IMG/VR virus record: IMGVR_UViG_648276670_000001
Location: 1-29,531 of that record
DNA length: 29,531 bases
DNA from: a virus
Lineage: Duplodnaviria > Heunggongvirae > Uroviricota > Caudoviricetes
Reading direction: 5' to 3' (one strand)
The notes beneath the pieces were generated by a model that searched no databases, was not told the DNA's origin, and was given only the letters and a program-made list of their open reading frames with translations. A program made the position numbers and the translations under genes. How positions within the stretch are numbered: the stretch's first letter is position 1; each line of letters opens with the position of its first letter. This document shows, piece by piece, positions 7,249-10,390 of the stretch.

Positions 7249-7495
7249 AATCTGTAAGCCTTTTACAATTATAAAAAATATGGCAGGCTAGTCTGGTCTC
7301 GCGAGACTGACTGAACCTTGGTCGGCTCACAGCGCATTCCTGTGGGGCGATGGCCAGCCCGGTGTTCGGGTACCGGGCTGGTCGTTCTTTCAAAGCCATC
7401 ATGCAGTGCACGTTTACATCTTCACTATTAACGCTGTTTAAAATCCGTATCCCGCCACATTTGTGATGCTGTCTCCACCAAACGAGGAGACACAC
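7249..7495. promoter_or_regulatory. Divergent intergenic region between the methyltransferase and lysis genes, containing a perfect 12-bp palindrome
   Basis: GTCTCGCGAGAC at 7296-7307; a minus-strand TATAAT (plus 7268-7273) about 20 nt upstream of the methyltransferase ATG with a poor -35; GAGGAG Shine-Dalgarno at 7484-7489 for the downstream gene. Confidence 0.35.
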
Positions 7496-7846
7496 ATGAA
7501 AAACCTGAAAAAATTCATTCCCCCTGTTAAAAAACCTCGCCTCAGCGGCTGGCTGCTGACCTCAGTGCTGTTGCTGGGCATCATCGCTCTGGTCTCGCCA
7601 CAGCAGTTGCCTGTTGTGATCTACAAGCTGGCACTCATCACGCTGGCAGCAGTGCTGGGTTACTGGCTTGACCGTTCGCTCTTCCCCAAAGCCCGTCCCG
7701 GTCAGTACCTGAAACATGACAACAGACTGATGGCTGAAGGGCGTTTCCCTGTGCAGACCGGCCTTCACCTTGTATTTTCTGCTGCGTTAATCCGCCGTGC
7801 ACTGATTGTTGCAGCGGTCTGTCTGGCTGTGGCAACAGGACTGTGA
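7496..7846 (+). CDS. Small membrane protein, candidate holin, about 116 aa
   Basis: GAGGAG Shine-Dalgarno 6 nt upstream of ATG 7496; three hydrophobic segments; immediately precedes the endolysin gene with overlapping stop and start. Confidence 0.5.
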   Translation: MKNLKKFIPPVKKPRLSGWLLTSVLLLGIIALVSPQQLPVVIYKLALITLAAVLGYWLDRSLFPKARPGQYLKHDNRLMAEGRFPVQTGLHLVFSAALIRRALIVAAVCLAVATGL

Positions 7847-7848
7847 CC

Positions 7849-8577
7849 ATGAACTGGCCTCAAATCACCCTCATTATTCTGTTCGCCTTTGGTCTGGGCG
7901 TAACCGCCATCAGACACGGAGAACCACGTAACGATAAATACAGCTTCTGGTGGCAGCTTGCTGGCAACCTGGTGATTGTCTGGCTGCTCTGGTGTGGCGG
8001 CTTCTTCAGTCAGGCCCGCGCAGCGCAGCCTCCGCAGGCTGCGCTGCAGTATCGCGATGATGTGATCCGTAATGCCCGGCTTGAATGGGGACTGTCTGCG
8101 CCGGTGGCCGATTTCGCCGCGCAACTGCATCAGGAAAGCGGCTGGCGACCTGATGCGGTCTCGCCGGCTGGCGCTCAGGGACTGGCGCAGTTCATGCCTG
8201 CCACTGCCGACTGGATAAGCCAGTTGATACCGATGCTGAGCAGTCGTGAGCCGTTTAATCCTGCATGGGCTATCCGGGCGCTGGTCAGCTATGACCGCTG
8301 GCTGTGGCAGCGCGTCAGCGCCGCCAACGACTGCGAGCGTATGGCCATGACACTGTCGGGCTATAACGGTGGTCTGGGCTGGGTACAACGGGACAGGCGG
8401 CTTGCATCACAGAAAGGTCTGGACAGCACCCGCTGGTTCGGACATGTCGCCACGGTGAATGCCGGACGCAATGCGGCCAGCTGGCGGGAGAACCGCCATT
8501 ATCCGCAGCGCATCCTGCGCGAACTGGCACCGCGATATCTCACATGGGGAGGCAGCAGTTGTGTGGCATCTGGTTAA
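7849..8577 (+). CDS. Endolysin, lytic transglycosylase (SLT domain) with N-terminal hydrophobic, possibly SAR-type, region
   Basis: SLT-like motifs LHQESGWRPDAVSPAGAQGLAQFMPATA; N-terminal 55 aa contain two hydrophobic stretches; ATG 7849 follows the upstream stop (alternative GTG 7843). Confidence 0.8.
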   Translation: MNWPQITLIILFAFGLGVTAIRHGEPRNDKYSFWWQLAGNLVIVWLLWCGGFFSQARAAQPPQAALQYRDDVIRNARLEWGLSAPVADFAAQLHQESGWRPDAVSPAGAQGLAQFMPATADWISQLIPMLSSREPFNPAWAIRALVSYDRWLWQRVSAANDCERMAMTLSGYNGGLGWVQRDRRLASQKGLDSTRWFGHVATVNAGRNAASWRENRHYPQRILRELAPRYLTWGGSSCVASG

Positions 8578-9211
8578 AAAGCTGCCGTGGCGCGGCATTC
8601 TGCTGGCCATTCTTATCAATGCCTTTCTGGTCGGCCTGTATGCCATGGGATACAGAAGTGGTCATGACTCTGCAAAGCGTGACGGTGATACCGCGCTCAG
8701 TCAGTTGCAGTCAGCATTTGACGCGTACAAAACGGAGCAGGCAACGCTTGAGAATGCTGCGCTGCGGGCCTGGGCCAGACGGTATCAGGAGCAGGTGGCC
8801 GCCGGGCAGCGGGCTGAAGCCGGTTATCTTGAGCAGATTGCTCAACTGGAGAGCCGGAATAAACAACTACAGGGGCAAATTAACGATGTCACACAGCGCT
8901 GGATTGATGAAAAAGGTAAGAGCCATCCCATTGAGTGCGTGTTTACTCGCGGTTTCGTGCGCCAGTACAACGCCGCACTCGGATATGACAATGCATCCGT
9001 CGACACCGGTCATTCAGACTCAGTTGCCGCCGCTGGCACCCGCTCTGGCACAGCGACCGGGCAACCTGAAACCACTGACACCCGGTTACGCGATTCGGGT
9101 GTCTCCCAGCGTGACGTTCTCGCCAACATCATCGACAACGCAGGACAATGTCGTCGCTGGCGGAACCAGATAAACGCGTTACTGGATGAACGGGAAGGAT
9201 TACAGAAATGA
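8561..9211 (+). CDS. i-spanin (Rz-like), about 216 aa
   Basis: GTG start with GGGGAGG Shine-Dalgarno 7 nt upstream, overlapping the endolysin 3' end; N-terminal TM helix WRGILLAILINAFLVGLYAMG followed by coiled-coil periplasmic domain; wholly contains the o-spanin ORF. Confidence 0.65.
   Translation: MWHLVKKLPWRGILLAILINAFLVGLYAMGYRSGHDSAKRDGDTALSQLQSAFDAYKTEQATLENAALRAWARRYQEQVAAGQRAEAGYLEQIAQLESRNKQLQGQINDVTQRWIDEKGKSHPIECVFTRGFVRQYNAALGYDNASVDTGHSDSVAAAGTRSGTATGQPETTDTRLRDSGVSQRDVLANIIDNAGQCRRWRNQINALLDEREGLQK
8907..9173 (+). CDS. o-spanin (Rz1-like) outer-membrane lipoprotein, embedded in the +1 frame of the i-spanin gene
   Basis: MKKVRAIPLSACLLAVSC has a signal peptide and lipobox (LAVSC) followed by a proline-rich mature region; embedded architecture typical of Rz/Rz1. 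Confidence 0.65.
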   Translation: MKKVRAIPLSACLLAVSCASTTPHSDMTMHPSTPVIQTQLPPLAPALAQRPGNLKPLTPGYAIRVSPSVTFSPTSSTTQDNVVAGGTR

Positions 9212-9534
9212 CACTGCAGGTTGAATTCTGGACGGTGGTGAGTTTTCTGCTCACCTTCATGGGGTTTGTGGGAGGGCTCGCCAAATGGTTGTTCAGTAAA
9301 ACAGAAGAACGCCAGGCGGCACGATTCGCCTCCCTTGAACAGGCCCTGCAACAATCCGCCTCCAACTGGGGCGAGCTGGAAAAAGAATTTATGCGATTTA
9401 AAGCGGATTTACCGCTGAATTATGTCCGTCGAGAGGATTATATCCGTGGCCAGACAGTCATTGAGGCCAAACTGGACGCGCTTTATAACAAACTGGAAGT
9501 GGTACAGCAGTACCGCAATACCGGAGGTCAATAA
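9208..9534 (+). CDS. Small phage membrane protein, 108 aa, function unknown
   Basis: ATG overlaps the Rz stop (ATGA); N-terminal hydrophobic helix WTVVSFLLTFMGFVGGLAKWLF; lies between the lysis and terminase genes. Confidence 0.55.
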   Translation: MTLQVEFWTVVSFLLTFMGFVGGLAKWLFSKTEERQAARFASLEQALQQSASNWGELEKEFMRFKADLPLNYVRREDYIRGQTVIEAKLDALYNKLEVVQQYRNTGGQ

Positions 9535-9845
9535 TGGTCGATATTACCCGGGTACGCCGCGAATCCCTGCGCTGGAGTCTGCTGGTTGCCCTGAACAAGA
9601 CCCGCCCTTACACCGCCAGCGAGACGCTGCTGCTGGATGTGTCCCGTGCCATCTACCCGGACACCACACCGCTGGAACTGCGCCGCGAACTGGATTATCT
9701 GGCTGACCGTAAAATGGTTGATCTGGAGAAAAAACCTTCTGGCGACTGGTTTGCTGACCTGACCCGCCTCGGCGTAGACCTGGTGGAATACACCGTGGAA
9801 TGTGGTCCGGGTATTGCCCGCCCGGAAAAGTACTGGAGTGAATAA
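9534..9845 (+). CDS. Hypothetical phage protein, 103 aa
   Basis: GGAGG Shine-Dalgarno 7 nt upstream; tightly packed within the late operon. Confidence 0.55.
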   Translation: MVDITRVRRESLRWSLLVALNKTRPYTASETLLLDVSRAIYPDTTPLELRRELDYLADRKMVDLEKKPSGDWFADLTRLGVDLVEYTVECGPGIARPEKYWSE

Positions 9846-10390
9846 TGGCCAGACGCAGCACAATAGAAAAGCTGCCGGAAGACGTGCGCCGCTGGCTTGA
9901 ACGGGCGCTGACTGAATCCGGCTTCAGCGGGTATAACGAGCTGGAGTCCCTGCTGCGTGAGCGGGGGTACGTTATCAGCAAATCCGCTATCCATCGCTAT
10001 GGACAGAAGATTGAGCGCCGCTATGGTGCTATCCGTGCGGCAACAGAAGCGGCCCGCATGCTGACCGAAGGCGCAGCAGACGATCAGGATGCGCGTTCGG
10101 AGGCTGTGATAGCCCTTATTCAGACCGAGCTGTTCGAGAGTATTGTCCAGTTGCAGGAGGCGGAAGAAGGCGAAGTCGATCCTAAAGAACGCGTGGCCCT
10201 GCTGTCGAAGGTGGCGAAGAATGTGGCTACGCTGTCCCGCGCGTCCGTCAACCTCAAAAAGTTCCAGTCTGAAGTACGGGCCAGAGCGCAGCAGGCAGCC
10301 AGCAACGCCGAGAAAATTGCCCGTAAGGGGGGACTGTCAAGCGACGCAGTACAGGCGCTTCGTCGCGAGATTCTGGGGATTGCCACATGA
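9845..10390 (+). CDS. Putative small terminase subunit / DNA-binding packaging protein (Mu-like), 181 aa
   Basis: Position immediately upstream of the large terminase with start/stop overlap; helical, basic and acidic character typical of Mu-like small terminase candidates. Confidence 0.5.
   Translation: MARRSTIEKLPEDVRRWLERALTESGFSGYNELESLLRERGYVISKSAIHRYGQKIERRYGAIRAATEAARMLTEGAADDQDARSEAVIALIQTELFESIVQLQEAEEGEVDPKERVALLSKVAKNVATLSRASVNLKKFQSEVRARAQQAASNAEKIARKGGLSSDAVQALRREILGIAT

Follow-up and report, generated by a model that had tools for sequence, protein, structure and literature searches.

The DNA analyzed here, called the window in what follows, is the whole 29,531-nt virus record IMGVR_UViG_648276670_000001, and the subject of this analysis is the group of genes on its plus strand between positions 7496 and 9534. 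Judging from sequence comparison, a BcepMu-like (Bcepmuvirus) transposable prophage of Escherichia coli has its late lysis operon in this region. The region comprises a holin-like gene (7496-7846), an endolysin gene with a catalytic SLT domain (7849-8577), the gene of an i-spanin (8561-9211) with that of an o-spanin embedded in it (8907-9173), and a gene for a small membrane protein similar to gp25 of BcepMu (9208-9534). An original prediction had recognized a lysis cassette at 7496-9211, and the list of open reading frames (ORFs) and the sequence place all four of its genes there. The cassette probably reaches one gene further, to 9534. The packed series of genes on the same strand runs on without a gap past 9211 (9208-9534, 9534-9845, and 9845-10390, the last being a Mu gp27-type small terminase gene). 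Moreover, the i-spanin start at 8561 overlaps the end of the endolysin gene at 8577 by 17 nt and the ATG at 9208 overlaps the i-spanin stop codon (ATGA), so the genes would form one translationally coupled late operon. Promoter and terminator scans within the operon gave nothing exceeding the shuffled expectation, and the terminator scan placed no plus-strand terminator-like site inside the block. The comparison with BcepMu proposed in the original prediction was apt, since the order of BcepMu genes 21-27 is identical: holin, SLT endolysin, Rz, Rz1 embedded in the +1 frame, gp25, gp26, and TerS (genes 21-25 described by Summer et al. 2004, as annotated in NC_005882). Overall, the cassette is of the known BcepMu/B3 type. 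The part that concerns us most is the N-terminus of the endolysin, apparently a fused small membrane protein followed by a predicted signal peptidase I site. Annotations of BcepMu-type lysis cassettes go back to 2004, and the SLT endolysins encoded in them are usually classified as signal-anchor-release (SAR) endolysins, a label that the observations presented here question for the whole endolysin family.

The endolysin ORF, annotated with the same extent in RefSeq, encodes a precursor of 242 aa and 27.2 kDa made of a two-helix module, an A-x-A junction, and the SLT domain. Residues 93-189 match Pfam SLT (PF01464; E=1e-14, 54.4 bits against a cut-off of 21.3), and the protein matches phrog_669, annotated as 'endolysin' (E=2e-70). 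Also, residues 79-180 align to the catalytic domain of E. coli Slt70 (1sly; phmmer E=4.8e-6), with the HQES motif placed over RQES of Slt70, so that by the alignment offset Glu96 falls on Slt70 residue 478, which we take to be the catalytic acid. Glu96 (codon 8134-8136) is invariant in all alignments made, and Cys162 and Cys238 are invariant as well. The predicted mature lytic transglycosylase corresponds to residues 59-242 (8023-8574, 20.5 kDa). In NCBIfam, the endolysin gave only sub-threshold matches to Mlt-type (MltF-type) enzymes, and the other proteins of the cassette gave none.

In front of the SLT domain, the original prediction had noted about 55 N-terminal residues with two hydrophobic stretches, and these were indeed seen at residues 6-21 and 33-53. 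The first one, helix 1 (ITLIILFAFGLGVTAI, 7864-7911), is rich in strongly hydrophobic residues (62% L/I/V/F/M), with a Kyte-Doolittle mean of 1.82 for residues 3-21. The second one, helix 2 (FWWQLAGNLVIVWLLWCGGFF, 7945-8007), which would act as the h-region of an export signal, has a mean of 1.43 and includes Gln, Asn, three Gly, and four Trp. The AlphaFold2 model shows helices at residues 4-21 and 33-49, followed by a break, with a predicted local distance difference test score (pLDDT) <50 at residues 56-60; its mean pLDDT is 64, and it was used solely for the helix boundaries and the disordered junction. The N-terminal tail MNWPQ, ahead of helix 1, is uncharged and the loop RHGEPRNDKYS after it has three K/R. 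Following the positive-inside rule, this charge distribution points to a hairpin with the N-terminus outside, the loop inside, and the C-terminus outside, which likely leaves the SLT domain in the periplasm. A fusion generated by a frameshift or a sequencing artefact was ruled out because the 242-aa ORF is kept across Enterobacterales down to 64% identity and is annotated in RefSeq. Inspection of the sequence also ruled out an internal start that would make helix 2 an N-terminal signal, as there is no in-frame ATG and the sole GTG (Val43) lacks a Shine-Dalgarno sequence.

This N-terminal module (residues 1-55, 7849-8013) is homologous to a stand-alone phage membrane protein of ~54 aa. Residues 1-54 of the endolysin match the full phrog_5479 profile (positions 1-53 of 53, E=8.5e-14), and the identity with gp66 of Xanthomonas phage FoX5 is 42.6% (tblastn). 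A profile search for the module returned 229 homologues, nearly all of 52-60 aa and ending in WGGFF(G), with Q5 and GGFF invariant and the consensus MGxPQII...LLWWGGFFG just before the stop codon. The same ends are conserved in the fused module (xWPQI... and ...LLW(C/W)GGFF), where G50, G51, F52, and F53 of helix 2 are invariant. Stand-alone genes are found in the Pseudomonas phages JBD67 (gp20, L006:1220-1378), Ps60 (gp24), and Fc02 (Fc02_22), as well as in FoX5 (L008:2501-2671), the L numbers being those of our comparison loci. In the three Pseudomonas phages, a separate gene located between those of the holin and the endolysin encodes the module as a 52-aa protein ending in ...WWGGFFG, and the endolysin carries its own lipobox-type signal (MKRLLTLGLLGLLSACQPAFA↓TD, the arrow marking the predicted cleavage point here and below). 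In FoX5, the 56-aa homologue ends in ...WWGGFFSQP and stands alone, surrounded by small hypothetical genes and without a neighboring SLT gene; its product is misnamed 'lytic murein transglycosylase', apparently through its similarity to the fused proteins. In metagenomic siphophage contigs (L093-L096:3501-3665), the stand-alone gene lies between a MuF-like head gene and a scaffold gene.

A comparison of phage B3 with JBD67 shows how the fused and split forms are related. ORF25 of B3 is a fusion of the module and the SLT domain with an A-K-A site, and it differs from the split arrangement of JBD67 by a single clean indel of 53 nt. The indel corresponds precisely to the stop codon, the ATG, and the n- and h-regions of the endolysin's own signal, and the c-regions (AKA↓D in B3 and AFA↓T in JBD67) are kept in both forms. 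This indicates that helix 2 of the small protein took over as the h-region of the signal peptide. In the searchable literature, neither the N-terminus of the Enterobacterales and B3 enzymes as a fused independent small membrane protein nor the interconversion of fused and split forms by a simple indel is described.

An A-x-A site of the type recognized by signal peptidase I is also found in the window, where it follows directly after helix 2 (GGFF-SQ-A56-R57-A58↓A59). The predicted site A56-R57-A58 covers 8014-8022, with the cut between nt 8022 and 8023. Among 116 homologues with the junction pattern ...LLWCGGFF-SQ-A-x-A-A-(Q/E)-P-P, Ala occupies position -3 in 102 and position -1 in 113, and position -2 is variable, with 11 residue types. 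A broader locus set was built with one genome per species (80 loci) plus phage loci, 86 of which were usable for the analysis of the site. A site with small residues at -3 and -1 is present in 85 of the 86, and in 82 it is located 8-10 aa before a conserved YR motif; -1 is Ala in 83 of the 85, and -2 takes 15 residue types. The search was permissive, and the mere presence of a site is weak evidence; what makes the site informative is its fixed distance to YR and the near-invariant Ala at -1 across signals that are not homologous to each other. The fused-module signal occurs in Enterobacterales, Pandoraea, and Collimonas, and in other loci the same SLT domain follows classic signal peptides (for example, MANRIRNRDSGPGQLLLLLILLLTGAFDSDA↓AQPP and MRHLLITLLVSPMLFSAAACA↓DTIP), lipobox types, or short signals derived by deletion. 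BcepMu gp22, which is 58% identical to the window enzyme and 39 aa shorter, lacks the two-helix module and has a short simple signal (MRVLIAFVVALLGAAAPVAA↓QVP). For the homologue of phage KS10, a SignalP cleavage site was reported at residues 44/45 (Goudie et al. 2008), and this site (SAHA↓QVP) is the junction homologous to that of the window. The endolysins of the JBD67/Fc02 type begin with MKRLLTLGLLGLLSAC↓QPAFA↓TD (L006:1375-2004, L091:2270-2899), with a canonical lipobox (LSAC) plus an AFA site, and this N-terminus may be that of a lipoprotein or a cleaved signal instead of the SAR domain of the literature. A signal-peptidase site common to all signal types of the SLT endolysin family is not described in the searchable literature.

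Based on these observations, we propose a model in which the endolysin is exported and cleaved. The 242-aa precursor would insert in the inner membrane as a hairpin, and its SLT domain would reach the periplasm through Sec without the help of the holin. As the comparison with related phages indicates, helix 2 of the fused small membrane protein would serve as the h-region of a signal peptide, and the host signal peptidase I (LepB) would cut after A56-R57-A58. The products would be a soluble lytic transglycosylase of 20.5 kDa, with Glu96 at its active site, and a two-helix membrane remnant of 58 aa and 6.7 kDa. By analogy with secreted and SAR endolysins, the enzyme would accumulate in an intact cell until the PF13272 holin collapses the membrane potential, and degradation of murein would then proceed. 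The i-spanin and the lipoprotein o-spanin would finish lysis by fusing the outer membrane with the inner one, as expected from their families, and the gp25-like protein may modulate the process, given that it lies where the releasin of Mu does. What sequence comparison supports is the identification of the genes, the fusion, the conservation of the site, and the anatomy of the spanins; the topology, the cleavage, the role of the holin, and the timing are inferred. For the model as a whole, we estimate a probability of about 50%.

Several points weigh against this model. Its weakest step is the tolerance of a Gram-negative host toward a soluble periplasmic endolysin before the trigger. As background, overproduced E. 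coli Slt70 is not known to be lytic alone, and Lys44, the endolysin secreted by phage fOg44, reportedly depends on depolarization of the membrane. Helix 2 is internal, which can disfavor LepB, and its 21 residues make it long for a cleavable h-region. The argument that the A-x-A site makes for cleavage is a comparative one, the holin role of PF13272 proteins comes from annotation, and the structural model is of low confidence, as its mean pLDDT of 64 indicates. To our knowledge, the exported endolysins of Gram-negative phages characterized to date are all of the SAR type. Moreover, the closely related N-terminus of the Fc02 type is classed as a SAR domain (Chamblee et al. 2022, PMC9239132). 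In favor of the model, T4 RI offers a precedent, as its supposed SAR domain was reclassified as a cleavable signal peptide (PMC8385771).

The original prediction had proposed that the window enzyme is itself a SAR endolysin. The part of this proposal that holds is that of an SLT enzyme exported by a membrane-inserting N-terminus, since holin-independent export by an N-terminal hydrophobic segment is supported computationally by the two helices and the charge distribution. However, the SAR label does not fit well. Following the criteria of Chamblee et al. 2022 (PMC9239132), a SAR domain is a single transmembrane domain (TMD) that comes after two to three basic residues and in which weakly hydrophobic residues predominate; Gly, Ala, Ser, and Thr would account for about half of it. 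The window enzyme has two helices instead, and its N-terminal tail has no basic residue. Gly, Ala, Ser, and Thr amount to 19% of helix 2 and 38% of helix 1, compared with 50% of the SAR domain of Mu gp22. As a strongly hydrophobic anchor, helix 1 would not be expected to exit the bilayer. The prediction had itself named a cleaved signal peptide or a separate ORF as findings that would speak against it, and the A-x-A site and the stand-alone phrog_5479 genes come close to both of them.

It is less likely, although the strongest of the alternatives, that the N-terminus is an uncleaved SAR-like tether which keeps the enzyme inactive until the holin, or a pinholin, depolarizes the membrane, possibly with the aid of the gp25-like protein as an analogue of a releasin. 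Such a tether would account for the avoidance of premature lysis, and helix 2, with the composition given above, is only marginally hydrophobic; also, conservation beside the enzyme extends both to the holin and to the membrane protein that occupies the releasin slot, and the sister enzyme of the Fc02 type currently carries the SAR label. On this account, however, helix 1 would also need to exit the bilayer despite its hydrophobicity and without any basic residue ahead of it, and the Gly/Ala/Ser/Thr content of both helices is below that of Mu gp22. The conserved A-x-A site would have no role in an uncleaved anchor, and the gp25-like family has no detectable relation to DUF2730, the releasin family. 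Homologues with poly-Leu or lipobox signals could not operate in this manner either. Because the poly-Leu signals of close homologues cannot be SAR domains, the enzyme family would not depend on SAR tethering.

A permanently anchored transglycosylase, active while tethered or employed for a purpose other than lysis, such as local remodeling of the wall, is a quite improbable reading. Host membrane-bound lytic transglycosylases do act while anchored, and the sub-threshold NCBIfam matches mentioned above are to enzymes of the MltF type. However, exactly like gene 22 of BcepMu, the gene is flanked by the holin and spanin genes of a late operon whose members are tightly coupled, the linker between helix 2 and the catalytic domain is short, and the conserved A-x-A site would be left unexplained.

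The middle of the module is its most variable part. Entropy reaches 1.8-2.1 bits at residues 11-40 of the endolysin, compared with 0.25-1.0 in the catalytic domain, and in the E. coli alleles the variation is confined to a cassette of 115 nt (7870-7984, codons 8-45) that covers the end of helix 1, the loop, and the start of helix 2, with sharp edges within a gene that is otherwise 95-99% conserved. Among complete E. coli genomes, the allele of the window, with the two-helix hairpin, is present in 67 and that of the PhiKM type in 572. The latter (MNWPQITWIVCMSLKLAFEAFRVFIRTERLSVRAG...) cannot be aligned to the window allele and apparently combines one TMD with an amphipathic segment. Across Enterobacterales, the allele types number at least six. 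In Photorhabdus and Xenorhabdus (L039, L043, L055-L063) and in three further loci (L037, L038, L068), an internal deletion has collapsed the module to a short signal in which the conserved ends are both retained (in Photorhabdus and Xenorhabdus, MNWRQIIGIVLLWCGGLISPVLA↓DEPP). Reduction by deletion to a plain short signal applies to these two genera and to some loci of Pectobacterium and Brenneria. Judging from the collapsed forms, export appears to be what selection keeps of the module.

These data also bear on a variant compatible with the cleavage model, in which the precursor is a polyprotein and the 58-aa remnant is itself a lysis regulator (a pinholin, an antiholin, or a partner of the holin) delivered 1:1 with the enzyme. 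In favor of this variant, the module is a conserved independent gene family of ~54 aa, with 229 matches and invariant Q5 and GGFF, and B3-like phages place it between the holin and the endolysin. The conservation of the ends that would face the periplasm, around a hypervariable middle of which two alleles segregate in E. coli, points in the same direction. Nonetheless, the module is missing from BcepMu and from many further cassettes in which the holin is retained, it was reduced to a plain short signal in the genera mentioned above, and the stand-alone gene is found outside lysis cassettes, next to head genes in the metagenomic contigs and without an adjoining SLT gene in FoX5. We regard a regulatory remnant as unlikely. 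The same low confidence applies to the more specific idea of a membrane polyprotein split by signal peptidase into a lysis-timing regulator of the ~54-aa family and a free transglycosylase that is restrained otherwise than by a SAR tether. If the polyprotein reading were true, the 115-nt hypervariable cassette would tune the timing or the specificity of lysis, and the gp25-like protein would represent a second, non-homologous family of releasin-like lysis factors.

Several known systems come close to the cassette of the window. The phages B3 (ORF24-28), JBD67, Ps60, and Fc02 share the holin family, the SLT domain, and the spanin family with the window, and B3, JBD67, and Ps60 also have a phrog_462-type gene downstream. 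JBD67, Ps60, and Fc02 differ in the separate 52-aa module gene, the lipobox-type signal of the endolysin, and an overlapped o-spanin; moreover, in Fc02 a DUF2730 gene replaces the phrog_462 gene. SAR endolysins that work with a pinholin or releasin (P1 Lyz, phage 21 R, and Mu gp22; PMC9239132) would resemble the window enzyme in their holin-independent Sec export by an N-terminal hydrophobic segment, and SAR systems and the window have in common a late operon of the Mu-like kind, in which spanin genes and, downstream, the gene of a small TMD protein are present. However, SAR endolysins are of the lysozyme class and have one helix, whereas the window enzyme is an SLT transglycosylase with two helices, no basic N-terminal tail, a low content of Gly, Ala, Ser, and Thr, and an A-x-A site; besides, its downstream protein is not a member of DUF2730, unlike that of SAR/releasin systems. 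Lys44 of the Oenococcus phage fOg44 (cited in PMC2628397), the KS10 endolysin, and T4 RI (PMC8385771) share the layout of an export signal followed by a signal-peptidase site. The difference is that the signal of the window enzyme is helix 2 of a fused independent membrane protein, and cleavage would leave a two-helix product. Experimentally demonstrated cleavage is reported for Lys44 and RI, whereas for the family of the window it is predicted.

The diversity of N-termini suggests an SLT endolysin family that would be exported by freely interchangeable signals, namely classic signal peptides, lipoboxes, and the fused two-helix protein. Given that all signal types keep a signal-peptidase site, the comparison further suggests that control by a SAR tether may not apply to the family. 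If this is true, how a Gram-negative phage restrains a secreted soluble endolysin before the holin fires becomes a question, one directly addressable in E. coli because the cassette is present in ~12% of its complete genomes. Also, two families of small proteins, phrog_5479 and phrog_462, are placed here in a first context. For antibacterial use of the endolysin, residues 59-242, the predicted mature form, would be preferable to the full ORF.

The holin-like protein encoded upstream (116 aa, 7496-7846, plus strand) starts at an ATG preceded by GAGGAG 6 nt 5' of it, and the endolysin ATG begins 2 nt after its stop codon. The original prediction had described it as a protein with three transmembrane segments, and hydropathy analysis located three hydrophobic segments (residues 16-34, 40-58, and 92-110) after a basic N-terminal tail with six K/R within the first 15 residues. 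By its matches to Pfam PF13272 (Holin_2-3; E=5e-41, 139.6 bits against a cut-off of 27) and phrog_1528, 'holin' (E=5e-54), it belongs to the BcepMu holin family. In almost every one of the ~90 related loci, a match to the hidden Markov model (HMM) of this holin family precedes the SLT gene. Two in-frame codons, GTG 7463 and ATG 7466, lie 5' of the start at 7496, which is also the RefSeq start, and would add MMLSPPNEETH, with two acidic residues. This extension is reminiscent of the dual starts of holins and antiholins, and it lacks a Shine-Dalgarno sequence.

Downstream of the endolysin, the i-spanin (Rz-like, 216 aa, 8561-9211, plus strand) starts at a GTG preceded by GGGGAGG, with the same start in RefSeq, and matches phrog_1403, 'Rz-like spanin' (E=7e-92). 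It has an N-terminal TMD at residues 12-30 (nt 8594-8650) and two periplasmic cysteines, Cys126 and Cys197, which provide the periplasmic Cys expected of a spanin pair. As the original prediction stated, the o-spanin gene (Rz1-like, 88-aa precursor, 8907-9173, plus strand, with an alternative ATG at 8886) lies wholly within the i-spanin gene in its +1 frame (8907-8561 = 346). It spans from 0.53 of the i-spanin gene length, or 0.50 with the alternative start, to 0.94, the typical geometry of embedded o-spanins (Kongari et al. 2018, PMC6139136). The lipobox LAVSC was located at nt 8946-8960, at the end of the signal MKKVRAIPLSACLLAVSC, with Cys18 as the predicted lipidated residue and Ala at +2. 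Cys12 (PLSAC) was ruled out as the lipobox because a signal of 11 residues would be too short, Pro occupies -4, and homologues keep the Cys18 site. The mature o-spanin would have 71 aa, with 11 Pro (15%), 27% Ser+Thr, and no Cys; the description of it as proline-rich thus needs to be tempered, as lambda Rz1 reaches 25% Pro.

Among the 65 related loci with an i-spanin match, 60 have an out-of-frame lipobox ORF (56 embedded and four overlapped), so that the doubt raised in the original prediction, namely that the embedded ORF might lack a lipoprotein signal in homologues, does not hold. The consensus of the lipobox is ..LL(V/A)(A/V)SC↓(S/A)xTTPP, and the identity with BcepMu gp24 (Rz1) is 36%. 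The pair resembles lambda Rz/Rz1 (Kongari et al. 2018, PMC6139136) in the +1-frame embedding, the lipobox, the Pro/Ser/Thr-rich mature part, and the periplasmic i-spanin Cys. However, there is no sequence similarity between them, and the mature o-spanin of the window differs in lacking Cys and in its length (71 aa compared with 40). In B3-like phages (L006, L007, L009), the o-spanin is overlapped and ends 7 nt past the i-spanin stop; those of the BcepMu and E. coli types are embedded, with i-spanins of the same HMM family. Kongari et al. 2018 (PMC6139136) stated that embedded and other architectures do not occur together within any spanin family. The RefSeq/PGAP records of the prophage (L001, L090) leave the embedded o-spanin unannotated and name the i-spanin variously as 'lipoprotein', 'hypothetical protein', or 'lysis system spanin subunit'.

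The first gene after the spanins (9208-9534, plus strand) encodes the gp25-like membrane protein of 108 aa, which matches phrog_462 (E=1.6e-36) and has a TMD at residues 7-29 followed by a hydrophilic C-terminal part, for which an orientation with the N-terminus outside and the C-terminus inside is assumed. Its identity is 51% with BcepMu gp25 and 20% with Mu gp25, the releasin. Clustering at 50% identity divides the phrog_462-type family into 1088 clusters, and Pfam has no model for it. An argument about its role comes from the comparison of Fc02 and JBD67, which share 87% DNA identity from the holin gene through the end of the i-spanin gene. After this point, Fc02 has a DUF2730 gene and Fc02_27, JBD67 has a phrog_462 gene and a gp26-like gene, and the similarity resumes in the small terminase gene; the slots compared are L091:3724-4044 in Fc02 and L006:2806-3195 in JBD67. 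The DUF2730 protein of Fc02 matches PF10805 (E=4.6e-9) and is listed in Table S1 of Chamblee et al. 2022 (PMC9239132). This replacement of two genes at one slot indicates that the gp25-like family of the window occupies the releasin slot, and suggests that phrog_462 and DUF2730 are functionally equivalent.

Homology between the two families was not detected. Neither the gp25-like protein, scanned to an E value of 10, nor 24 of its relatives gave a Pfam hit to PF10805/DUF2730, and 148 family representatives compared with DUF2730 gave just four sub-threshold hits (best E=0.011). Also, hhalign comparisons of shallow and deep profiles with Mu gp25 and the DUF2730 protein Fc02_26 gave probabilities of 2% or less. 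Since all homology tests were negative, the identification of the gp25-like protein as a homologue of the Mu releasin was dropped and the positional argument alone was kept; 9208-9534 is then a candidate accessory lysis gene, which we do not call a releasin. Two UniRef names label homologues of this protein as 'DUF2730'.

Finally, the distribution of the lysis block supports the origin proposed at the beginning. It is 97.5% identical to that of Escherichia phage PhiKM (Bcepmuvirus) and 90% identical to that of the Klebsiella phage KP12 clone, and it is present in 638 of 5426 complete E. coli genomes (about one in eight), mostly with 95-99% identity and up to 99.8%. In E. coli MS20655, it is located within a Mu-like prophage adjoining torS. 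A chance origin of the arrangement can be dismissed on the basis of this conservation (95-99.8% in the 638 genomes) and of the lipobox ORF in 60 of 65 loci. The KP12 sequence (OM835952.1, Klebsiella phage KP12 clone KP12_2) is filed under Vequintavirinae, but the 35 kb of this clone represent a BcepMu-like element that shares 90% identity with the window, probably prophage-derived DNA that was co-sequenced with a lytic phage. Upstream of the holin gene, the interval between it and the dam methylase gene (7249-7495 in the window) contains extra genes that differ among relatives, being a DUF2441 gene in some E. coli strains, a 567-nt ORF in KP12, and two ORFs in PhiKM, and it looks like a hot spot for the insertion of morons.

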